Positions 1 through 44,458 of a DNA stretch of 49,801 nt are shown piece by piece (the stretch's first letter is position 1; the number at the start of each line of letters is the position of its first letter). The notes under the pieces were generated by a model, which did no database searches, was not told the DNA's origin, and saw nothing but the letters and a program-made list of their open reading frames with translations. Position numbers and translations under genes: made by a program. The stretch is from an uncultured archaeon (GTDB lineage: Archaea > Asgardarchaeota > Lokiarchaeia > Sigyniarchaeales > SOKP01), in contig CAYLZE010000028.1 of NCBI GenBank assembly GCA_964388035.1, forward strand, positions 1-49,801, in the 5' to 3' direction.

Positions 1-2409
1 AATTTGGGCACTCTCATCAATAAAGATAATAAGCATTACTTTCTCACCGAAGATGGCAAGCGCATTTTAAAAATTATGAATCTAAACAAGAGAATTCTCT
101 CTGGAGAAGAATTATCAGAATATTTAGATTCAAAGGGAAGTGAAATAAGCAGAGTTGGGGTGATTATTTGTAATTGCAATACGGAAATTTCAAAAGCCAT
201 TAATGTTGAGCTCTTAGAAAATTATGTTAGCAAACTAAAAAACGTTATTTCCGTGAAAGTCTTCAATAATCTCTGCCAACAAAAAAATTTTGAAAATATA
301 TCTCGTTGGGTAAAAGATAATTTTCTAAATAAAATTGTCATTGCAGCGTGTTCGCCTAAGACCCATCAAATTCTATTCGAGAGGATTTTCAAGGATGTCA
401 TCGATAAAGTCAATATTGAAATTGCAAATATACGGGAGCAATGTGCTTGGGTTCACTATTATAATGCAAAAAATCGCGATCCCATGAAAATTCTCGAGAA
501 GGCAAAACTCCTCATTGAGGCTGCAGTGGAAAGGGTAATATTACAGGAAAGCGTTAAAATAAAGCGGGTGGAAATAGAGAAAAGTTGTGCTATAATTGGA
601 GGGGGGATTGCTGGGATGATGGCTGCACTTAATTTATCTCGAGCAGGAATAAAAGTGTACCTTATTGAAAAATCTCCGACCTTAGGTGGGAAAGTTGCAC
701 GTTGGAATCGTATTTATGAGATGGGAGATTGTTCTATCTGTTTTATTTCAGAATTAATTGCGGAATTAGCTAAAGAAAAAAATATTAAAATTTTAACAAA
801 CACGACATTAGAAAACATCACGGGAGAAGTGGGAAATTTCACCATTAATCTCCTTCAAAAGCCACGCTACGTTGATGAGAAGAAATGTACCGGCTGTAAA
901 CAATGCATAAGCATATGCAGTATTGAAAAACCTGATCAATATGAATTTGGATTAGTTAATCGCAAAATAATTTACATTCCTTTTATTCATTCCTATCCGT
1001 ACGTTCCCCTAATAGATAATGAAGATATACAAAATTGTCTTAAGTGCAGGATTTGTGAACGAGCTTGTATTAATAAAGCGATAGATTTGGATCATACGGA
1101 AGAAAAAATCCAAATAAAGGTAGGAGCAAAAATAATTGCAATTGGAGCAGATTTTCCCTCGAATTTGAAGGAATATAACCATGATCCTCGCAATGATGTT
1201 ATTACTTCTCCCGAATTTGAACGAATTTTATCATCGGATGGGATAACTGAAGGGCAATTGATAAGATTATCTGATAATACTTCCCCCAAATCAATATCTA
1301 TTATTCAGGGAGTGGGAAGTAAAAATTGGTATTCATTGTATAATGATATTCTGGTTTTAAAATACTTAAATAGTATTTCGGGAAGACTTCCCAATGCGGA
1401 AATAAATGTTTTTTATGATTTAAATCGATTAGAAAATCAACATAATTTTTACTTGACTCCTATGGACTCGAGAATTCACTATGTTCATAACTTACAAATA
1501 GTGGAAAAAAATAAAGATAAATTCATCATTACGGATACGGAAGAATACCAAAGTGATTTAATTATTTTAAACCTGAACATGGTACCTAATAAAGATTTAC
1601 ATTCTCTGCGAAAAACTATGGACTTTACGTTGAATGATGATGGATTCATGAGTAAGGATACTTTAGCATCAGGAGTATATGGAATTGGAACAATTTTGGG
1701 CCCTTTAGATTATCAAAGTACCGTCAGCTCTGCTAATGAGGTTGCTCTTAAGGTGATATCATTATTATCTCAAGATTTTTTAGATGCAGAGTTCAGTGGT
1801 ATTGAAATTGATGAGACAAAATGTGGATTGTGCGGATTATGTTTAAATTCTTGTCCCTATAACGCCATTATTATGGATGGGGAAAAAATTAATATCGATA
1901 AGTTTAAATGCAAGGGTTGTGGAGTTTGTGTTTCAATATGCCCAACAAATGCCATTGAAATGAATATAGATACCAGTGCTAAAATTTTAACCTCCATTGA
2001 AATTTTTTCTAAACTGAAATCAAAACCCAAAATTATTGCTTTCTGCTGCAAATCATGCGGGTATGCCGCTGCAGATGATACTGGCTATAAAAAATTATGG
2101 TATACTCCTAATATTTTTGTTATAAGAGTTCCATGCACTGGAAGGGTTGATAGTAGGTTTATTTTAAAATCATTTGAGATGGGCTTTGATGGAGTAATGG
2201 TTATCGGCTGTAGAAGATCTGCGTGTAGGTTTATCGATGGTGTGGAAAAAATTGAGAAAAAAATTAAATTATTGAAAGAAATTTTAGGAGATAAATATAA
2301 AAATCGCATAATACTAAAACACATGAATGCTGTAGAAGGAAATAAATTTGCCAAAGCCATAAACGATTTTTACGAACAATTAACGGAGGAGATAAAATAT
2401 GAAGCCTAA
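1..2409 (+). CDS. hdrA: 5'-truncated HdrA-like flavoprotein fused to C-terminal MvhD, with a probable winged-helix tail at the N-terminus
   Basis: Frame is open from base 1. HdrA N-domain (VGVIICNC, CSPKTH, NIREQCAWVH), FAD motif GGGIAG, inserted ferredoxin (CTGCKQC...CLKCRICERAC), C-terminal 2x[4Fe-4S] (CGLCGLC, CKGCGVC) and MvhD motifs (FCCKSCGY, PCTGRV, GCRRSAC). Confidence 0.9.
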   Translation, partial: NLGTLINKDNKHYFLTEDGKRILKIMNLNKRILSGEELSEYLDSKGSEISRVGVIICNCNTEISKAINVELLENYVSKLKNVISVKVFNNLCQQKNFENISRWVKDNFLNKIVIAACSPKTHQILFERIFKDVIDKVNIEIANIREQCAWVHYYNAKNRDPMKILEKAKLLIEAAVERVILQESVKIKRVEIEKSCAIIGGGIAGMMAALNLSRAGIKVYLIEKSPTLGGKVARWNRIYEMGDCSICFISELIAELAKEKNIKILTNTTLENITGEVGNFTINLLQKPRYVDEKKCTGCKQCISICSIEKPDQYEFGLVNRKIIYIPFIHSYPYVPLIDNEDIQNCLKCRICERACINKAIDLDHTEEKIQIKVGAKIIAIGADFPSNLKEYNHDPRNDVITSPEFERILSSDGITEGQLIRLSDNTSPKSISIIQGVGSKNWYSLYNDILVLKYLNSISGRLPNAEINVFYDLNRLENQHNFYLTPMDSRIHYVHNLQIVEKNKDKFIITDTEEYQSDLIILNLNMVPNKDLHSLRKTMDFTLNDDGFMSKDTLASGVYGIGTILGPLDYQSTVSSANEVALKVISLLSQDFLDAEFSGIEIDETKCGLCGLCLNSCPYNAIIMDGEKINIDKFKCKGCGVCVSICPTNAIEMNIDTSAKILTSIEIFSKLKSKPKIIAFCCKSCGYAAADDTGYKKLWYTPNIFVIRVPCTGRVDSRFILKSFEMGFDGVMVIGCRRSACRFIDGVEKIEKKIKLLKEILGDKYKNRIILKHMNAVEGNKFAKAINDFYEQLTEEIKYEA

Positions 2410-3160
2410 ATTTCTCATTACATCCTTTACATCTTGTAGTGGATGTATTGTGGATATAATTTCCTCGGATATTTTTCCTGTATTCTTGGAAAGGGTAACT
2501 CTTACCCATTTTCCCTTCATTACAGATGATAATATTATTCAAGATTGTGACGTTGCTCTAATAGAAGGATGTATTTCTGAAGAAAACCAAATTGCAATGT
2601 TGAAAAGTATTCGCCACCATGCTAAAAAGGTCTATGCTCTAGGAACATGTGCGGCTTTTGGAGGAATATTGAGTTTATCTGAGGAGAAAAGGGCAGATCC
2701 CCTATCAGATTATATAGAAGTAAATGGAATTATACCTGGATGTCCTCCTCCTTCACAATTATTGGGAAACGTGTTAATTCGATTGATCGAAGGGAGAGAG
2801 CTTGAATTATCAAATAAAAACATGTGTGCAAATTGTCCCATAACAGAGAAAATCGACAAAAATAGTGCGACCAAAATTTTAAAATTTTATCCTGATTCCG
2901 ATGAGATTGAGCCAAAAGAAGAGACCACATGCTTTTTAAAAAGAGGTATTTTGTGCATGGGTCCAATTACTCGCGAAGGATGTGAATATGAATGCATTAA
3001 GCAAGGCATTCCCTGTGAAGGGTGCATGGGTCCCGTCTCTAAGGACTTTACTTCCAACATGGTTAATTTTTTGAGTATAATAGATATTTCAGAGAAATTA
3101 ATAAAAAATAATGCATTTTTCTACCGATTTTCAAAACCACGCTTATGGAGGGAAAAATAA
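2399..3160 (+). CDS. Group 3 [NiFe]-hydrogenase small subunit (MvhG/HydD-like)
   Basis: SCSGC, GTCAAFGG, PGCPP, and C-terminal CANC...CFL...CMGP...C...C...PCEGC. Overlaps the upstream gene by 11 nt. Confidence 0.9.
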   Translation: MKPKFLITSFTSCSGCIVDIISSDIFPVFLERVTLTHFPFITDDNIIQDCDVALIEGCISEENQIAMLKSIRHHAKKVYALGTCAAFGGILSLSEEKRADPLSDYIEVNGIIPGCPPPSQLLGNVLIRLIEGRELELSNKNMCANCPITEKIDKNSATKILKFYPDSDEIEPKEETTCFLKRGILCMGPITREGCEYECIKQGIPCEGCMGPVSKDFTSNMVNFLSIIDISEKLIKNNAFFYRFSKPRLWREK

Positions 3161-4465
3161 ATGATAAAAACTGTGGATGTATGCACGCGAGTAGAAGGTC
3201 ATGGGAGCATCAAGATCTATCTTAAACACGATTCTGTAGAACGGGCAATTTTTGAATTATCTGGATATCGCGGGTTTGAATCCATTCTTAAAGGAAAACA
3301 TCTATTTGACGTTCCCAGGATTATTTCGCGAATTTGTGGCGTATGCCATGCTGCCCAAACCATAGTAAGCTGTAAAACTATTGAAAACATGTATGAATTT
3401 GATTTGCCCCAACAATTCCTCCTCCTTCGCAAATTATTATTGACGGGAGAACTGCTTAAATCTCACGGGATGCACTTTATTTTTCAAGCCTTTCCGGATT
3501 TATTACACCTTTTAGGCATTCAAACCAAGATTTTAAGTCCTTATGATGTAATAAAGGAATATCCTAACCTAATTAGTAATTTTTTTGAGCTCGTGAATAT
3601 TGGAAATCAAATTGATAAAATTTTTGGAGGACGAGCCATCCACTTAATCACTCCGATTCCCTGCGGGGTTATTTACACCCCCTCTAATAAGAAAATAAAA
3701 TTAGCTCAAAAATATTTTGAAAGTGCACTTAATAATGTGGAATGGATTTTTCAAAAAATGGTGGAATTATTTTCTGATAAAACCCCTCCCGAAGCCTTTA
3801 ATCTTCCCAAAACGACTATGATGGCATTGCACGATCATGGCACTTATAATCGTTATGATGGTCTCATTAGAATAAAAAATCTTGATGATAAAGTGATTGA
3901 TTTTTTATCCAATAATTATACTTCTTATTTTAGTAAAAGTACTGATTTTAGGGGTATTGATTTTTATTCTATTGAAGATAATACCGTGCTGGTTGGACCA
4001 CTTGCAAGACATCATCTTGTAGAAACATATGGAAAGGATGAATACACAAATTATTTCGAATATTTTAATGATGCATGGAAGAATAACTTGCTTTTTGGCA
4101 ACTTCATACGACTCATGGAAATGTATGTCGAAATAATACATTCTCTTTCTGCTCTCCAAAATCCTGAACTAAATGAGGAAATTCCTCTTACTAAATTAAC
4201 GTCTTTGAAATCAAACGAAGGAATGGGTGCGCTCGAGGCCCCGAGAGGGTTATTGATGCACCATTATAAAATAAATGATGCCCGGATTATCACGGAAGCC
4301 AAATTATTCATTGCAACGGAATTAAACCTTCCACTAATTGATAAAATGATAACTAACCAGAGCAAATTACTATATGAACAGAAAGGTGATCTAAACCTTA
4401 TCAAGAAGGAAGCACAGAAAATGATAAGATCCTTCGATCCTTGTATTTCCTGTGCAACACATTAA
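3161..4465 (+). CDS. Group 3 [NiFe]-hydrogenase large subunit (MvhA/HydA-like)
   Basis: RVEGHG, RGFE, L1 RICGVC, GGRAIH, EAPRG, L2 DPCISCATH followed by the stop codon. Confidence 0.93.
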   Translation: MIKTVDVCTRVEGHGSIKIYLKHDSVERAIFELSGYRGFESILKGKHLFDVPRIISRICGVCHAAQTIVSCKTIENMYEFDLPQQFLLLRKLLLTGELLKSHGMHFIFQAFPDLLHLLGIQTKILSPYDVIKEYPNLISNFFELVNIGNQIDKIFGGRAIHLITPIPCGVIYTPSNKKIKLAQKYFESALNNVEWIFQKMVELFSDKTPPEAFNLPKTTMMALHDHGTYNRYDGLIRIKNLDDKVIDFLSNNYTSYFSKSTDFRGIDFYSIEDNTVLVGPLARHHLVETYGKDEYTNYFEYFNDAWKNNLLFGNFIRLMEMYVEIIHSLSALQNPELNEEIPLTKLTSLKSNEGMGALEAPRGLLMHHYKINDARIITEAKLFIATELNLPLIDKMITNQSKLLYEQKGDLNLIKKEAQKMIRSFDPCISCATH

Positions 4466-4718: not shown

Positions 4719-5792
4719 ATTTTAAAAGAACACCAATCTTCAGTATATTTAACTGAAATAAGGAAACCTATCGAGGAAACGAGTGAAGAAATTAAAAATA
4801 CTTTTTACCATGACAGAGTTATTTTTAAGAGCTTTCTGAGACAAGGGAATAAAAAAGTAATTATTAAACCAAATATCTTACCAACAGAATATAAAAATGA
4901 AGGATTGGCATGCACTAATTCGAAATTATGTGCGTGTTTAGCTAAATTTTTGAAAGAAATCGGATTTGAAGAGATAATCTTAGCAGAAGGATCCACCCAT
5001 TGCTCTAATGGAAATCCTGATTCTATTCAAGCGATGAAAAATAATGGTTTTTCTAATTATGAAGGACTTTGGAGCCAGATCGATTGCAATAAAGACAATG
5101 CTGGCAAATGGTTTGAAATTTTTTCACCAGGAGATCAAGATTGTGAAAATAAGAATCCTTTTGACATTGAATTGGGTATTTCTGAGATCGCGACAAGATA
5201 TCCAATCATATCCGTGGCTAAATATAAATCCCACGATGTGTTGGGATTAACTCTTTCAGTCAAAAACCTGATGGGATGTTTATGTAAAGCAAGAAGGATA
5301 TCAACGGGAGAGATTATCGAGGAAGGTGCTCGAGTAAAATCTTACATGCATGGATTTGGACCACGTAATCCTAGCATGCTTACCGAAACAGAAAACCTCA
5401 CGATCTCTAAGACAGCTCTGGCGATAAATATAAATAGAATGGCAAAGATATTTTTGCCTCATTTCTCAGTTCTTGATGCTGCTCCAGCAATGGAAGGGAA
5501 TGGACCTTTACGTGGAAATCCAAATAATTTAAATTTAATTATAAGTTCAAGAGATTCTGTAGCACTAGATTCTGTAGGTTGTGCTCTCATTAACCTCGAT
5601 CTTAATGATGTTCCGCACATTAAGAACCTTGAAAGATTAGGATTAGGAGTTGCTACCCTAAGTAAGATTAAAATAATTAATAAAACGCTATTTCTTAATA
5701 TCCAAAAAGTAGCTAAATTTAAATTCCATCAACGGTTTGAATATGCAAGATTCAGTGTTAATGAAATTAGCTTGCTGGAAAAATATACCTGA
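4719..5792 (+). CDS. DUF362 family protein (probable Fe-S associated); start probably upstream of the ORF-track start at 4905
   Basis: In-frame KVIIKPN upstream of 4905, plus AEGS, KYKSH..LGLTLSVKNLMG, MEGNGP..G and DSVALD. Frame is open back to 4713. Confidence 0.75.
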   Translation: MLKEHQSSVYLTEIRKPIEETSEEIKNTFYHDRVIFKSFLRQGNKKVIIKPNILPTEYKNEGLACTNSKLCACLAKFLKEIGFEEIILAEGSTHCSNGNPDSIQAMKNNGFSNYEGLWSQIDCNKDNAGKWFEIFSPGDQDCENKNPFDIELGISEIATRYPIISVAKYKSHDVLGLTLSVKNLMGCLCKARRISTGEIIEEGARVKSYMHGFGPRNPSMLTETENLTISKTALAININRMAKIFLPHFSVLDAAPAMEGNGPLRGNPNNLNLIISSRDSVALDSVGCALINLDLNDVPHIKNLERLGLGVATLSKIKIINKTLFLNIQKVAKFKFHQRFEYARFSVNEISLLEKYT

Positions 5793-37914: not shown

Positions 37915-39147
37915 ATGACAGAAGCCCGAAAAAACAAGCAAGAGACGGAAGTGTCTGAAGAGAAGAAAAATGAGATTCTTAAAAGAATTTCTTCGGCTGT
38001 CAATTATTGCTTGGACTGTAATAGATGCGAATCCATATGCCCTTTATCTCAATTAGGGGCATTTTCTCCCAGAAAATTGATAAATGACTTAAATTTTTTA
38101 CCCTTAGAGGAAGCATTAGAAAGGAATAATATATGGGACTGTTTAACGTGCGGGGCATGCATGAGCTATTGCCCCATGACTAACAACGAGGAGGGTGTCC
38201 GAATACCCGAATTAATATTAGAATTAAGAATGCTTTCTGAGCAACAAGCTGACCAGCTGGAAAAGCTACAACAATGCGAAACTCATGACGGGATGTTCAC
38301 GTTAATTCCTAAACTCATGGCAGAAATCCCTACTCCCCCAAATAAATTGGATTTTATTTCAGAAAGTAATCTGAAAGTTAATCAAGAAGGAGAATTAGCT
38401 TATTTCGTTGGTTGCTTACCCCTGATGAATGATGTCTTATATCGTTCTGATGTAGATTATATTGGAACCAGTATAAGTATCATCTCTATTTTAAATGAGG
38501 CAGGAATTACTCCCGTTGTTTTGAATGAAAAGTGTTGCGGACATGATATATTATGGGGAAAAGGGGATATCGAGAATTTCAAAAAGCTAGCGAATTACAA
38601 CGTAAATCTCTATAAAAAAGCCGGTGTGAAAACTATTCTTGTGAGTTGTGCAGAAGGTTACCGGACGTGGAAGATAGATTATCCCAAATATGTGAAGGAT
38701 TGCGATTTTGAAGTACTATATTTTGCAGAATATTTTCTAAAAAACAATCTCCTCGAGAATATTCGATTTCCCATGGATAAAAGGATTAAAGTGACCTATC
38801 ATGATGCTTGTCGCTTAGGGCGCTTAGGTGATAAGCTCTATGATGCCCCCAGAGAATTGATCCGCCAACTTCCTAATGTTGAATTGATTGAAATGAAAAA
38901 CATTAAAGATGATGCGAATTGCTGCGGAGTTTCAACTTTTACGGGATGTAATGAGTATACCCGATTACTTCGACAAGATAGGTTAAAGCAAGCAATCGAT
39001 ACTGGTGCGGAATATCTACTCGTTCCTTGTCCTAAATGTTTGACCCATTTTACCTGTTTTTTGAGTGAGCCAAGCAGTTCCATGGGAGAGAAAATAAAAG
39101 TAATGGATCTGGCTAATTTTATTGGACATTTACTTTTTATAAGTTAA
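37915..39147 (+). CDS. hdrD: HdrD-like Fe-S oxidoreductase (HdrC-type 2x[4Fe-4S] plus two CCG domains)
   Basis: CLDCNRC..ICP, CLTCGAC..CP, YFVGC, CCGH, SCAEG, YHDAC.LGR, CCG, CPKC. Confidence 0.85.
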   Translation: MTEARKNKQETEVSEEKKNEILKRISSAVNYCLDCNRCESICPLSQLGAFSPRKLINDLNFLPLEEALERNNIWDCLTCGACMSYCPMTNNEEGVRIPELILELRMLSEQQADQLEKLQQCETHDGMFTLIPKLMAEIPTPPNKLDFISESNLKVNQEGELAYFVGCLPLMNDVLYRSDVDYIGTSISIISILNEAGITPVVLNEKCCGHDILWGKGDIENFKKLANYNVNLYKKAGVKTILVSCAEGYRTWKIDYPKYVKDCDFEVLYFAEYFLKNNLLENIRFPMDKRIKVTYHDACRLGRLGDKLYDAPRELIRQLPNVELIEMKNIKDDANCCGVSTFTGCNEYTRLLRQDRLKQAIDTGAEYLLVPCPKCLTHFTCFLSEPSSSMGEKIKVMDLANFIGHLLFIS

Positions 39148-39157
39148 GATGATAAAA

Positions 39158-39185
39158 AGATGGAGATAAACTCCTCTATTTTTTA
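39158..39185. terminator. Possible small bidirectional hairpin between the convergent hdrD and frhB-like genes
   Basis: AGATGGAG-ATAAA-CTCCTCT flanked by A-rich and T-rich runs. Confidence 0.25.
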
Positions 39186-40300
39186 TTATTTTTGCATTTT
39201 AGAGAAATCATGCGATTCAAATTTTTAACTTTTTTCTCCTTCCAATCTGAAGCTTCTTCTGCAGGAACCATGAACTGCTGAATTAACTTGTTGGATATTA
39301 AAGAATTAATTAATTTTTCTCCCGTTTCTGTGCGTGTAATTATCATCGAATATCCTTGAGGTGCTCCAGAAGCACCTATACTCACATCAGAAAAGCGTCC
39401 CGTGAATTCATCGCAAACATGACAATGATTCCTCACCGCATCATTTAATTTGCGTATGCCTATTTGATATTCATTTTCTTTATTGTCCTTAAGAAAAAAA
39501 TCTTTTTTGATCCATGTTTTTTTAATATCGTCACTTGGTACTTTGGTTTCTTGCTCTATGATTTTATATAACTTGGTGTAATCAAAATTTTCATAGCAAA
39601 ATAGACTCAAAATATATTTAATCACGTGAGCGGGTTTAATGTGAAGTAATTTCATCTTTCGAACGGCTCGAACTTGACATGGCGTGCCAACAAATGCTAA
39701 TCTCATGGCATCAATGTCATATATCCCCTTTTCTTCAAGCACTTTTTCGGGCAGATTGTATAGATCTTTTAAAGGTAAAAGTTGAGAAGAGATTGTATAG
39801 CGCGTGCCAGCAGAATTCAATAATTCTTCTTCTTTAAAAATAATTTTGGGAATGGTATGAAGTTCTTCATCGAATTCGGAAACAATAGCGCCATCAATCT
39901 TATTGGTTCGAAACAAGTACGATAAAATCGTGGTCACAATTCCTCCGTCTTGCCCTAGTTTCTCAATTGCTTCATTCGTAGTTTTACCCGCAAAAATATT
40001 GATAACAGGCCCTAACGGGTCGGTAACTTTACTTGCTTCATCTAACTTCTTGTTAAAAACCTCTGTTTGAGGACAAATAAAATAACATAACCCACATTCC
40101 TTACAATTCTCAGCATTTTTATCGGATTTGAATCTGGGAGTAAAATCATCCATTTGAATCACATCAAATGCTTGGCTTTCGCAATATGACACGCACGCTC
40201 CACAAGAACAACAGATCTTATTCTTTATGACCTCCTCCTCCAAGTTTTTAAAGGTTTTAACTACAATATCTTGATCCCTGCTACTTTTGGATTCTGTCAT
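39176..40300 (-). CDS. frhB: F420-reducing hydrogenase/dehydrogenase beta subunit (FrhB/FdhB/FpoF-like) with an N-terminal ferredoxin
   Basis: CCSCGACVSYC, CKECGLC..IC, QDGGIVT, AGTRY, VGTPCQ, LFCYENF, CHVC.EF, DVSIG. Confidence 0.88.
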   Translation of the reverse strand: MTESKSSRDQDIVVKTFKNLEEEVIKNKICCSCGACVSYCESQAFDVIQMDDFTPRFKSDKNAENCKECGLCYFICPQTEVFNKKLDEASKVTDPLGPVINIFAGKTTNEAIEKLGQDGGIVTTILSYLFRTNKIDGAIVSEFDEELHTIPKIIFKEEELLNSAGTRYTISSQLLPLKDLYNLPEKVLEEKGIYDIDAMRLAFVGTPCQVRAVRKMKLLHIKPAHVIKYILSLFCYENFDYTKLYKIIEQETKVPSDDIKKTWIKKDFFLKDNKENEYQIGIRKLNDAVRNHCHVCDEFTGRFSDVSIGASGAPQGYSMIITRTETGEKLINSLISNKLIQQFMVPAEEASDWKEKKVKNLNRMISLKCKNNKK

Positions 40301-40305
40301 TTCTT

Positions 40306-40791
40306 TTATTCACTCTTTAGTTTAGCATTTAATTTATATTCAATTATTCCCGGTTTTTTCGGGATTTTAGAAGGTCCCAGTTCCTTAATCTTGCGGGTAA
40401 AATCCGTTATTAATTCCGCAAATTGTTTTCCTTCACTCGCCGAAATCCAGTGCAACCTAAACCTTTCCTCTTCCAAACCAAGTTTTTTAATTAACTTCTT
40501 AAGATGATCCATTCGAATTGCTGTTTGTTCATTCCCAGAAATATAATGACAATCGCCAATATGACATCCGGTCACCAATACTCCATCAATACCATTTAAA
40601 AAGGCATTCAAGATGAAAGAAGGCTGGACTCTGCCCGAGCACATGACTCTTACTATTCGAATGTTAGGAGGATATTGAAAACGTGAAACTCCGGCGAGAT
40701 CTGCTCCTGCGTAAGAACACCAATTACAGCAAAAAGTAAGAATCTCAGGTTCCCAATTCGTTTCTTTGGTCTTCACGCTTGATTTAGCCAT
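40306..40791 (-). CDS. mvhD: MvhD/VhuD [2Fe-2S] subunit (Cys form)
   Basis: FCCNWCSYAGAD, MCSGRV, GCHIGDCHY, WISASEG. Confidence 0.95.
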   Translation of the reverse strand: MAKSSVKTKETNWEPEILTFCCNWCSYAGADLAGVSRFQYPPNIRIVRVMCSGRVQPSFILNAFLNGIDGVLVTGCHIGDCHYISGNEQTAIRMDHLKKLIKKLGLEEERFRLHWISASEGKQFAELITDFTRKIKELGPSKIPKKPGIIEYKLNAKLKSE

Positions 40792-40803
40792 GTGTTTCTC
40801 TCC

Positions 40804-43800
40804 TTAACTTTGTTCTTTTTCGCAAGATTGTAAATTCAACCCCGTTAATAAATCAATTTGCTTGATAATTTGATATTTACTATAATGGCGTTGATCTATC
40901 GCTCCTGTGGGACATTCCGCCACGCAAGTGCCACAACCTTTGCACATTGCGCTAATAATTCTTGCTTTTTTAACGGTTACTGTATAAATTCCAAATTCTT
41001 GAGCTTCGGTTTCAATTATATCAATAGCACTATAGGGGCATACTTCACGGCAACGTCCACACCCAACACATTTTTCTTCATCAACGGAGGAAGTAATTCC
41101 TTCGGTTTCCACTTCTCCTTTTACCATGATCATGGATGCTCTAGCGGCTGCCCCGTATGCCTGCGTGATGCTCTCATCAATCCATTTTGGCCAATGAGCT
41201 CCTCCACATAAAAAGATTCCCTCCGTGGCAAAATCAATGGGTCTTAATTTAACATGAGCTTCTAAGAAAAAACCATCTTTAGTCGTTGGAACTTTAAGCA
41301 TTTTTGCCAAATCTTTTGTACCGCTTTCGGGAACATTTGGAGTTGCCAGGATGATCAAATCGGAATGATTCTCTACTTGAACTCCCGCTCCGAACAAGTC
41401 ATATTTTAAATGAAAGCGTCCTTTATCATCTATAATCAGAATGTCATCAATCGAGCGATATCGCTCGAAAGAGACCATCTTTCGCAGCTTTCTCCATAAA
41501 GTTTCAGCATATAAATCTGAAAATTGAAGTTCCCTGTAGAGAACATGAACATTCGCATCTGGATTCACAGCTAGTAACTTCTCAATATTTTTTAACGCAA
41601 CTCCGCAGCAAATATTTGAACAATAAGTTTTTACTCCCTCTCCTTGATTTAATTTATTTTTTCTCTGATCCACGCATAAAATAATGGTTGCATCTTGAAA
41701 GCCCGGAATATCTACATCATTTGTAGATATGAATTCCGTTTGAGTCATGATTCTATCCGGATATTTCTCTTTCAAGTCTTTCCAGCGAGTAGACTCAATT
41801 TGACGACTACCTGTGGCTACAATAATGGTGCCCACCTTGAACTCTTGCAGTTCTCCCGTACTACCTTCAGTGTTGATCATGTAGTTTCCCACAAACCCGC
41901 GTATGTCCCTTATTTTTGAGTTTAATAAAAGGTGCACGTTAGGTCTATTTTTTAATTCATTAATTTCCTTTAAAATTTCCTGCTTGGTAATTGCCACGTA
42001 ATACAGATCAACAAATTCAAGAGCTCTCCCCCCTAAATTGGGTCCTCTTTCAACCAAGAATACTTCAAACCCTTGTCGCGCTAAATTATGAGCGGCTATA
42101 ATCCCCGTGATTCCACCGCCAATAACCAAGCTGGCCTTTTGGACCGGGACTTTAATCTTCTTTTGGGGGTTAAGATTCACAACTTTAGCCAAATACATGC
42201 GAATTAAATCGCAAGCTTTTTCGGTAGCTTTATCCGGTTCTTTTTGATGTACCCAGGAATCTTGATCTCTTATATTTACTAATTCAAATAAAAAGGGATT
42301 AAGTCCTGCTTCTCTCAACGTATTTTGGAATAAAGGCTCGTGGGTTCTTGGAGTACAAGATGCAACGATAAACCTATTTAAATTATATTCCTTGATCATT
42401 TCTTTAATTCTTTCTTGGGAATCAGAACTACACGAATACATGTTTTCTTCACATCTCGCCACGTAAGGTAAGCTCGAGACATAATCCACCACGGCACTCG
42501 TATCCACTACACCTCCGATATTAATTCCACACTGACAAACAAGAACGCCTACACGGGGCTCTTCATTATCAAGAATTGGTTTTTCTTTAGGATATACGAT
42601 ATCTTTAATATTCTCAAATCGAACGGGATATAATTTTTCACTTATTCTTGCCGCGCAAGCGGATCCTTCCGCAACTGCATTGGGAATATCTTTTGGCCTG
42701 CGAGAATATCCCGTGAAATATATATAACCCTCCTCGCAGTTATTCACGCCTTCTTCATTAATATATCCCAGATCATCATGCCCTACTTCCAAGCAATCTA
42801 ACAATTTGTAATATCCTTGATTTGGAAAGAGGGCACTCGCGAGAACAACCATATCAAATTCGGAAGTTTCTACGATTCCCTTATCCATGTTTTCATAATG
42901 CAAAATCAATTTTCCGTTATCTTCATTTTCTTTAACAAAAGCTACTCTCCCATTCACATAATTAACGCCATACTCCTCTTGGCTGTTGACTATGAATTCA
43001 TAAAAATTCTTTCCTTTTGCCCGTATTTCTGTATTAAAAATAGAACATTCCAGATCTGGCGAATGTTCTTTTGCTACGATTGCTTGTTTAGCAGAAGACA
43101 TACAACAAATTGCCGAGCAATACTTTTTAAACTCAGGATGATGGAAATCTCGAGACCCTACACATTGCAAGAAAGCAATTTTATGAGGATGTTTTTTATC
43201 ATCCAAGCGTAATAACTGTCCTCCGGTAGGACCATTTGCAGACAATAGCCGCTCAAATTGCATGCTAGACACCACATTAGGATTGCTCCCTGCTAATCTC
43301 GTGTAATAATCCGGCATGTGCTGTTCATATCCCGTAGCAATAATGATTGCTCCCACTTGAATCGTTTTTATTTCGGGTTTTTGAGAAAAATCAATGGCCG
43401 ATGCCGAACAAGCTTGTTCACATAACCCACATATACCAAGATTCAATTTTAAACAATAATTTTCATCTATTAAATATACGGGCGGTACGGAAGAAGGAAA
43501 GGAAATGTAAGCTGCGCCGTGCGTCTTTAAATTCGCATCAAATTCGCTGGAAATTTCCTTAACGGGACAAATTTTAGCGCAATCCCCACAACCTTTACAG
43601 AGGTCTTCTTTAACATACCGGGGCTTTTTAACAATCTTGACCGTATAATTTCCCCCAGATCCCTTTATGTTTTTAACGTGTGAATAGGTTAAAAGTTCAA
43701 TATTTGGATTCCTAAAGACCTCTACCATCTTAGGAGCAAGAATGCAAAGACTACAATCCAAAGTAGGAAAGGTCTTGTCAAGCTGAGCCATTGTCCCACC

Positions 43801-43923
43801 AATGGTGGGCTTTTTTTCAACTAAATATACCTTGAACCCGAGTCCCGTTAAGTCCAAGGCGCTTTGTATGCCGGCAATGCCTCCCCCGATAACAAGGACG
43901 GAGCCGTGCAGAGTGTCTGACAT
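40804..43923 (-). CDS. hdrA: Large two-flavin-domain heterodisulfide reductase subunit A-like protein
   Basis: GGGIAG, LDKTFPTLDCSLC, QCVGSR..YCSAICCM, internal N-domain (VCQCGINI, CTPRTH, NIRDQDSWVH), second GGGITG, EAHVKLRP, C-terminal 2x[4Fe-4S]. Confidence 0.93.
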   Translation of the reverse strand: MSDTLHGSVLVIGGGIAGIQSALDLTGLGFKVYLVEKKPTIGGTMAQLDKTFPTLDCSLCILAPKMVEVFRNPNIELLTYSHVKNIKGSGGNYTVKIVKKPRYVKEDLCKGCGDCAKICPVKEISSEFDANLKTHGAAYISFPSSVPPVYLIDENYCLKLNLGICGLCEQACSASAIDFSQKPEIKTIQVGAIIIATGYEQHMPDYYTRLAGSNPNVVSSMQFERLLSANGPTGGQLLRLDDKKHPHKIAFLQCVGSRDFHHPEFKKYCSAICCMSSAKQAIVAKEHSPDLECSIFNTEIRAKGKNFYEFIVNSQEEYGVNYVNGRVAFVKENEDNGKLILHYENMDKGIVETSEFDMVVLASALFPNQGYYKLLDCLEVGHDDLGYINEEGVNNCEEGYIYFTGYSRRPKDIPNAVAEGSACAARISEKLYPVRFENIKDIVYPKEKPILDNEEPRVGVLVCQCGINIGGVVDTSAVVDYVSSLPYVARCEENMYSCSSDSQERIKEMIKEYNLNRFIVASCTPRTHEPLFQNTLREAGLNPFLFELVNIRDQDSWVHQKEPDKATEKACDLIRMYLAKVVNLNPQKKIKVPVQKASLVIGGGITGIIAAHNLARQGFEVFLVERGPNLGGRALEFVDLYYVAITKQEILKEINELKNRPNVHLLLNSKIRDIRGFVGNYMINTEGSTGELQEFKVGTIIVATGSRQIESTRWKDLKEKYPDRIMTQTEFISTNDVDIPGFQDATIILCVDQRKNKLNQGEGVKTYCSNICCGVALKNIEKLLAVNPDANVHVLYRELQFSDLYAETLWRKLRKMVSFERYRSIDDILIIDDKGRFHLKYDLFGAGVQVENHSDLIILATPNVPESGTKDLAKMLKVPTTKDGFFLEAHVKLRPIDFATEGIFLCGGAHWPKWIDESITQAYGAAARASMIMVKGEVETEGITSSVDEEKCVGCGRCREVCPYSAIDIIETEAQEFGIYTVTVKKARIISAMCKGCGTCVAECPTGAIDQRHYSKYQIIKQIDLLTGLNLQSCEKEQS

Positions 43924-44257: not shown

Positions 44258-44458
44258 TTAAATTTCTTTCCACATTGTACCGCATTCGCCGCATAAATAT
44301 TTTTTACCATAGACTCGGGGGTAATCCATTATAATTTGGCTCTTATCTACCGATTCGTGAATCATGTGCGGGTTATCTGTCCCACATTTTGGACATTTAC
44401 GCCGTCCTTCGTGCTTTTCGATACTCAAAATCTCGCCCGAAGTTTCTTCTTCTCCCAT
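44258..44458 (-). CDS. Small zinc-ribbon protein
   Basis: CPKC...CGECG..W; GGAG upstream of the start. Confidence 0.75.
   Translation of the reverse strand: MGEEETSGEILSIEKHEGRRKCPKCGTDNPHMIHESVDKSQIIMDYPRVYGKKYLCGECGTMWKEI

Follow-up and report, generated by a model that had tools for sequence, protein, structure and literature searches.

The first 4,465 nucleotides of a 49,801-nucleotide stretch of DNA from an uncultured archaeon of the Lokiarchaeia (GenBank assembly GCA_964388035.1, contig CAYLZE010000028.1; hereafter the window) carry an operon of three genes, the first of which encodes a winged helix-turn-helix (wHTH) domain joined to an HdrA-type protein and to the adaptor MvhD, while the other two encode the small and large subunits of a [NiFe]-hydrogenase. 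We consider it probable that the three products make up a one-component, H2/redox-responsive repressor complex, that is, a transcription regulator coupled to a hydrogenase. We are evenly divided on a more specific proposal, namely that this is the first direct H2 sensor of archaea, in which a group 3 [NiFe]-hydrogenase and a transcription factor derived from HdrA switch operator binding through an H2-driven arm motion, and which originated a single time, ahead of the divergence of the Asgard classes, its large subunit later converging on the glutamine-bearing, tail-less state of bacterial sensor hydrogenases. The original prediction, made from the sequence of the window, was of an MvhAGD-HdrA module converted into an H2/redox sensor; the winged helix, its co-occurrence with the hydrogenase and a candidate operator speak for the conversion, whereas H2, as opposed to the general redox state, is the presumed signal.

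Architecture of the operon

The open reading frames at 1-2409 (open at the 5' end, 802 amino acids), 2399-3160 (253 amino acids) and 3161-4465 (434 amino acids) are all present at the start of the window; genes 1 and 2 overlap by 11 nt and genes 2 and 3 abut, precisely the tight coupling first described. The window begins where contig C28 of a 5.5-Mb genome begins, which is why gene 1 is cut at its 5' end, and close homologues carry Promethearchaeota/Lokiarchaeota labels. By Pfam, the product of gene 1 combines MvhD with HdrA-type flavin adenine dinucleotide (FAD) and ferredoxin motifs, and genes 2 and 3 match a small subunit and a NiFe large subunit, respectively. The features of the operon are as follows.

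1..99, plus strand: end of an ArsR-like winged helix (DUF7347), comprising its wing and last helix, from alignment to full-length orthologs, Pfam, an AlphaFold (AF2) model and a hidden Markov model (HMM)
148..549, plus strand: HdrA N-terminal Fe-S domain, with C57, C59, C92 and C117 invariant in the ortholog alignment
580..1790, plus strand: HdrA thioredoxin-reductase-like FAD domain, with GxGxxG at residues 200-205, C244/C247, E407 and K454
1294..1374, plus strand: segment of the HA4 cluster, which has four cysteines in canonical HdrA and none here (comparison with canonical HdrA and 81 orthologs)
1801..1953, plus strand: HdrA C-terminal 2x[4Fe-4S] ferredoxin (Pfam, ortholog alignment)
2032..2409, plus strand: fused MvhD, with conserved [2Fe-2S] ligands C683, C686, C712, C737 and C742 (FlpD, E 7e-35)
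2399..3160, plus strand: MvhG-like small subunit, with 12 cysteines assigned as ligands of three clusters
3161..4465, plus strand: group 3 [NiFe] large subunit, with E12, C59/C62, Q66, R362, C428/C431 and H434 followed by the stop

The truncated winged helix suspected at the start of gene 1 is real: residues 1-33 correspond to the wing and last helix of such a domain, the first 47 or so residues, among them the recognition helix, fall beyond the contig start, and the orthologs hold the complete domain. All full-length orthologs begin 47 residues earlier, residue 2 in the window aligning with their residue 49, and the ortholog of a sister genome (849 amino acids, 80% identical) has a complete N-terminal winged helix. 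In the latter protein, Pfam returns DUF7347 (E 3e-14) with HTH_24 and HTH_20 above cut-off, and the fold was examined on its AF2 model (pLDDT 91), of which the window holds the last third; the best structural matches found by Foldseek are regulators of the YodB, CadC, NolR and BigR type (TM score 0.7-0.78, E at least 0.003), and an HMM profile search matches the ArsR-like repressor 1y0u of Archaeoglobus fulgidus (E 1.6e-6). A model of the full-length fusion (pLDDT 88) places a flexible linker between the wHTH and the HdrA N-terminal domain. Of the segments that we measured, conservation is highest in the recognition helix, at 87% column identity (HA4 region, 52%).

The HdrA part had been described as decayed, which holds for the HA4 segment and two nearby deletions but not for the FAD motif, the flavin-side Glu and Lys or the other cluster ligands. 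GxGxxG, E407 and K454 are kept in 81/81 orthologs, the latter two aligning with Glu356 and Lys409 of structure 5ODC, where Lys409 lies near flavin N5 (PMC13514486). A 2x[4Fe-4S] ferredoxin (C296-C356) is inserted within the FAD domain, and the cysteine ligands of the N-terminal cluster, C244/C247, the four ferredoxin clusters and MvhD are invariant or nearly so in the 81 orthologs. In contrast, the HA4 segment, i.e. the cluster by which the high-potential electron passes from FAD to the heterodisulfide (PMC12350162), retains no cysteine in 36 of the 81 orthologs and all four in 14 deep-branching ones. Beyond the wHTH itself, the features common to the whole clade are an 8-residue deletion in HdrA of a conserved loop before the C-terminal FAD segment (all members shown) and a deletion of about 30 residues after the proximal-cluster segment of the small subunit. 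The fusion of MvhD in cis is evident from the FlpD match at residues 678-795 of the gene 1 protein, and the large subunit, whose best match in the Protein Data Bank is MvhA (5odc_F, E 3e-52), has both of the peculiarities attributed to it, Q66 and a stop directly after H434 in place of a C-terminal extension.

A candidate operator and its putative targets

De novo motif search by expectation-maximisation in 41 dereplicated upstream regions recovered the palindrome TGA(C/T)AA-N6-TT(G/A)TCA with a log-likelihood of 187, shuffles reaching 34-43. Of the 63 promoters of fusion orthologs (the training set), 40 have a scoring site, often directly 3' of a TATA-like box and, as judged by eye, with a second site 21 nt on; such placement makes repression the probable mode of action. 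Among promoters held out of the training, the palindrome stands before the gene we call c4 (205 amino acids, heading an operon with an Mtd-like dehydrogenase) in 13/13 cases, before a related 86-amino-acid gene in 6/7, before an frhB-like gene inserted ahead of the fusion in 6/8, and before 9 mtd genes that begin their own transcription unit, as compared with 5/642 at other genes and a genome background of 0.7%; no palindrome was found at the mtd homologues of five fusion-free genomes. The same palindrome accompanies the fusion from Lokiarchaeia to the Asgard families f19, f21 and f31 and to one locus of Bathyarchaeia, where one and the same 20-nt operator-type sequence stands twice (L134:2312 and 13069), before the GcvH-NuoEFG-like cluster and before the MFS transporter gene that flank the operon.

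In the genome under study, the best and the third-best intergenic sites both occupy orthologous positions, C94:15420 (before the 86-amino-acid gene) and C94:20571 (before c4, where the contig ends). Because the sister genome carries c4-c6-mtd-cdc48 head-to-head with the fusion, contig C94 very probably joins base 1 of the window; the missing N-terminus of gene 1 was not found anywhere in this assembly. Across genomes, c4 is co-distributed with the fusion (87/90). The three related proteins encoded at C94:15052-20463 (L206; 205, 251 and about 90 amino acids) belong to no Pfam family, the only lead being a TraB/GumN-like match (score 0.82), and many relatives have the 251-amino-acid protein fused to the Mtd-like enzyme. 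Read-through by selenocysteine (Sec) between c6 and mtd is ruled out by TAA/TAG stops.

Distribution and order of trait changes

The fusion was found in 120 of 400 Asgard genomes, nearly always as a single copy. Within the family of the window, a matching large subunit is present in 88 of 90 fusion-bearing genomes and the fusion in 88 of 91 genomes with that large subunit, the three exceptions being fragmented assemblies; hydrogenases of this clade are thus almost always found alongside the wHTH-HdrA protein rather than mostly without it, the outcome that would have spoken against the original prediction. The operon is conserved across Lokiarchaeia, four other Asgard families (f19, f21, f28, f31) and Bathyarchaeia, in the order fusion-small-large in every intact locus read, while in one genome (G045) the fusion stands apart from the small-large pair. 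Among 1.8 billion representatives searched with a profile, only about eight clusters span the wHTH and HdrA parts, and those with a name are Asgard or Bathyarchaeia. Since these genomes are kin and hence not independent, such co-occurrence counts testify to inheritance as a unit and not to repeated selection. HdrA-MvhD fusions without a wHTH do adjoin hydrogenase genes at L118:6895-9255 and L122:1051-3471, outside the clade described here.

Phylogenetically, all 22 fusion-linked large subunits examined fall in one branch within group 3 (support 100/99), apart from the Mvh/Vhu/HoxH rows and the 3b-like rows, with HoxC and HoxG outside (HoxC 100/100); any pairing with 3b or with 3c/3d as the nearest group is tentative (support 86/45). 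The HdrA parts of the fusions likewise form one branch. It follows from this placement that the large subunit is not of group 2b, even though Q66 aligns with Q67 of HoxC and both Gln and the absence of a tail occur in 120/120 of the closest homologues. The resemblance to group 2b on which the original argument leaned is genuine for these two traits but confined to derived Lokiarchaeia, and the argument carries less weight than was first given to it. His occupies the Q66 position in f3, f19, f21, f28, f31 and Bathyarchaeia; f4 and f5 combine Gln with tails; and tails of 5-15 residues occur in f4, f5 and outside Lokiarchaeia. In f19, f28, f31 and Bathyarchaeia the wHTH is already present together with His, tails and all four HA4 cysteines (f21 has His and a tail). 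The trees thereby suggest that the wHTH fusion came first, followed by HA4 loss and Gln and finally by tail loss. On these alignments the Gln and the losses of the tail and of HA4 arose late within Lokiarchaeia and are not defining traits, and their state in the deep branches marks the 2b-like traits as convergent refinements; of the traits whose co-occurrence across Asgard genomes was in question, the wHTH fusion does travel with the hydrogenase, while Gln and the missing extension do so in a subclade. In regulatory hydrogenases themselves, the Gln seems to have no role in H2 sensing (PMC5665086).

Proposed mechanism

Gene 1 travels with its dedicated small and large subunits as a single-copy operon, and by analogy with the solved Mvh-Hdr complexes the three proteins would assemble like MvhAG-MvhD-HdrA, probably around an HdrA dimer. 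Electrons would leave the NiFe site by way of the small-subunit clusters and reach FAD through the HdrA ferredoxins and MvhD. Loss of the HA4 motif would remove the exit to HdrC/HdrB, so that electrons from H2 would be left with no high-potential outlet and the cofactors would come to report the level of H2 or the redox state. Cryo-electron microscopy structures place the HdrA N-terminal domain in a mobile arm, which rotates together with the hydrogenase module from one state to another (PMC12350162). The wHTH may be tethered to this arm, in which case H2-filled clusters and FAD would shift it and reposition two wHTHs on the palindrome, the pair recognizing TGA(C/T)AA-N6-TT(G/A)TCA. Candidate targets are the operon itself, the divergent operon encoding two Pfam-less proteins, an Mtd-like methylene-tetrahydromethanopterin (H4MPT) dehydrogenase and Cdc48, the small related gene and, in some genera, the frhB-like gene opposite Sec-hdrA; the outcome would be a tuning of C1/F420-linked electron routes to H2.

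Several points weigh against a dedicated sensor. This very assembly lacks the operon's own promoter and the recognition helix, and genome-wide enrichment of the palindrome is marginal (7 sites reach 16 bits or more, the null having a mean of 2.3 and a maximum of 8), which implies a small regulon; moreover, the palindrome could belong to another co-inherited factor. The sensor-like losses are evidently not required, since deep-branching members keep HA4, His and tails, and the retention of E407/K454, the FAD motif and all clusters other than HA4 also fits residual catalysis. Finally, for binding, activity and expression we argue from sequence.

Other hydrogenase and hdr genes in the genome

A Vhu-type hydrogenase is present in 106 of 135 genomes of the family, most full-length matches being 79-90% identical, as against 43-62% for the large subunit of the operon (measured from different query genomes). 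The existence of a separate and more conserved Vhu-type enzyme implies that bulk H2 turnover is served by another enzyme, and judging from these comparisons the wHTH-linked hydrogenase is probably not the working hydrogenase of the cell. In this genome, the edge of contig C46 carries vhuG and the initial 17 codons of vhuA, near hypD and hypE- and hypF-like genes. The vhuA gene is cut by contig ends (C46:1-54 and the ends of C90 and C114), and the assembly thereby hides the likely metabolic hydrogenase.

Within the operon's own large subunits, catalytic outer-sphere residues drift in several lineages (the proton-transfer Glu lost, the canopy motif altered), the Ni cysteines never. The f31 large subunits (L095, L097, L098, L102, L104) have an altered catalytic Glu segment and canopy motif and those of f28 (L110-L113) an altered L1 Arg and terminal His, the four Ni cysteines being kept in both. 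Independence of this hydrogenase from Hyp maturation finds no support, hypD being missing about as often with the fusion as without it (14/90 fusion-bearing genomes and a similar rate in fusion-free ones).

The genes at 40306-43923, once taken for a canonical HdrA/MvhD set, encode a 1039-amino-acid double-flavin HdrA, MvhD and an FrhB-like protein; the former is not the canonical 650-amino-acid HdrA, and no operator is found there. Short HdrAs are encoded on contigs C5 (directly after hdrC/hdrB-like genes) and C175; the hdrB/hdrC-like genes of this genome adjoin other hdrA genes, and none lies in the operon. At 37915-43923, an HdrD-like gene (plus strand) converges on the double HdrA-MvhD-FrhB-like genes (minus strand). 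In relatives, hdrD-hdrA2-mvhD-frhB form one operon, often adjoining the wHTH-hydrogenase operon, and hdrD is inverted in this window. We rejected this hdr operon as a regulon target, the site seen in relatives belonging to the divergent c4 promoter, and hdrD likewise, the palindrome being missing upstream of it in 13 further fusion-positive genomes and in this window.

Other genes of this kind, and neighbours, are mentioned for completeness. Four hdrA paralogs (C45:2721-2723 and on contigs C32, C57 and C4) have an in-frame TGA at the second Cys of DCxxC, consistent with selenocysteine. Contig C5 (L229:2395-2754) encodes an 820-amino-acid FrhB/GltD-like redox protein with a weak C-terminal HTH-like domain below cut-off. 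A DUF362 protein downstream of the operon (4905-5792) and a 66-amino-acid zinc-ribbon protein upstream of the double hdrA (44258-44458) are neighbours that are not conserved.

Alternative explanations

The complex might instead be a trigger enzyme, i.e. a working hydrogenase-flavoprotein that moves electrons between H2 and either ferredoxin or the F420/Mtd modules while repressing, in the manner of PutA, its own genes and those of its partners, with the Mtd-like protein and the c4 family as possible metabolic partners. Its attraction lies in the retention of the flavin-side Glu/Lys and of every cofactor ligand but those of HA4, in the intact HA4 of deep branches, in the co-distribution of c4 and in a few genomes where ours is the sole NiFe large subunit found. 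Against this, the large subunit drifts faster than the Vhu enzyme, the f31 members examined have lost the canopy motif and, in most cases, the proton-transfer Glu, and no hdrBC pair was recognized beside the operon in the loci examined; two Vhu-less genomes also lack a linked hypD, which fits assembly gaps. We regard a trigger enzyme as unlikely, if the best placed of the alternatives.

Somewhat less likely still is a regulator with an input other than H2 (cytoplasmic redox poise, nickel or cofactor supply, or an inhibitor such as O2 or CO), the large subunit serving as a metal-binding or electron-bleed module. That the four Ni cysteines alone are strictly kept, with the L1 Arg, terminal His or catalytic Glu altered in some lineages, would agree with such a role, as would the genomes in which hypD was not found; but their rate is matched where the fusion is absent and so looks like incompleteness, and in the clade of the window E12 and R362 are kept, in a genome that has hypD and hypE- and hypF-like genes. 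We consider it very improbable that another factor reads the palindrome and that the wHTH has a structural or docking role instead, for although the redox protein on C5 also has a weak HTH-like match and the Foldseek E-values of the small domain are modest, the recognition helix is more conserved than the enzyme part and the motif follows the fusion across Lokiarchaeia, f19, f21, f31 and one locus of Bathyarchaeia, with none at the mtd homologues of fusion-free genomes.

Relation to known systems

Bacterial sensor hydrogenases signal through a kinase cascade. In Thermococcales, the ArsR-like wHTH protein SurR controls hydrogen and redox genes as a stand-alone disulfide switch, and PutA is a flavoenzyme with a built-in autorepressor domain but no hydrogenase or Fe-S wire; the repressor complex proposed here would share with SurR an ArsR-like wHTH tied to hydrogen/redox genes and with PutA a flavoprotein that carries its own DNA-binding domain. 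The group 2b systems, HoxBC-HoxJ-HoxA of Cupriavidus necator and HupUV-HupT, have in common with it the Gln position, the lack of a C-terminal extension and, as we propose, H2 reporting, but they differ in that our large subunit is of group 3, its Gln and tail loss are convergent and the DNA-binding domain lies within the complex; the operon encodes neither a histidine kinase nor a response regulator, and no conserved kinase gene was seen in the operon neighbourhoods examined, a single HATPase gene following the operon in one locus.

Resemblance to MvhAGD-HdrABC (5ODC; Elp-Hdr 8RVU; Fdh-Hdr 7BKB) extends to the HdrA fold (Foldseek E 1e-58 to 1e-62), the MvhD adaptor, the MvhG- and MvhA-like subunits, the FAD motif, the Glu356/Lys409 equivalents and the ferredoxin and N-terminal ligands, and with group 3c specifically the window proteins keep the cluster ligands of MvhD and MvhG and the four Ni cysteines. 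Unlike it, the present system has an N-terminal wHTH, an 8-residue HdrA deletion, HA4 loss in Lokiarchaeia, no hdrBC in the operon, a shortened small subunit and a tail-less large subunit that falls in a clade separate from group 3c, with all NCBIfam scores far below cut-off. Judged on defining features, it belongs neither to group 2b nor to MvhAGD-HdrABC. HdrA-MvhD fusions such as Methanosarcina HdrA2 (NF040770) and the archaeal ones of PMC11237513 are also single chains, but the window protein scores 594 versus a cut-off of 1100, and no HTH is mentioned for the archaeal fusions in PMC11237513. The large-subunit clade may equal one of the Asgard group 3 subgroups 3e-3l (bioRxiv 10.1101/2024.07.04.601786), for which the section of that preprint consulted here gives no gene context, HTH or regulatory role. 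No description of a wHTH-HdrA-hydrogenase wiring, nor any paper on DUF7347, was found in open-access full text.

Significance

Exchange of H2 is central to models of Asgard partnership lifestyles and of eukaryote origins, and for archaea no direct path from H2 sensing to transcription is known to us. All parts of the system are known folds whose function we infer from sequence; what appears to be new is the wiring of a hydrogenase-linked HdrA to a winged helix. If our interpretation is correct, the DNA-binding domain would reside inside the redox complex itself, unlike the kinase cascades of bacterial sensor hydrogenases, and HdrA, the textbook electron-bifurcating subunit, would become a candidate transcription factor with a protein, a candidate operator and a regulon that are all testable. 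Under their annotation as hdrA and hydrogenase, the genes described here may also inflate metabolic reconstructions of Asgard genomes.

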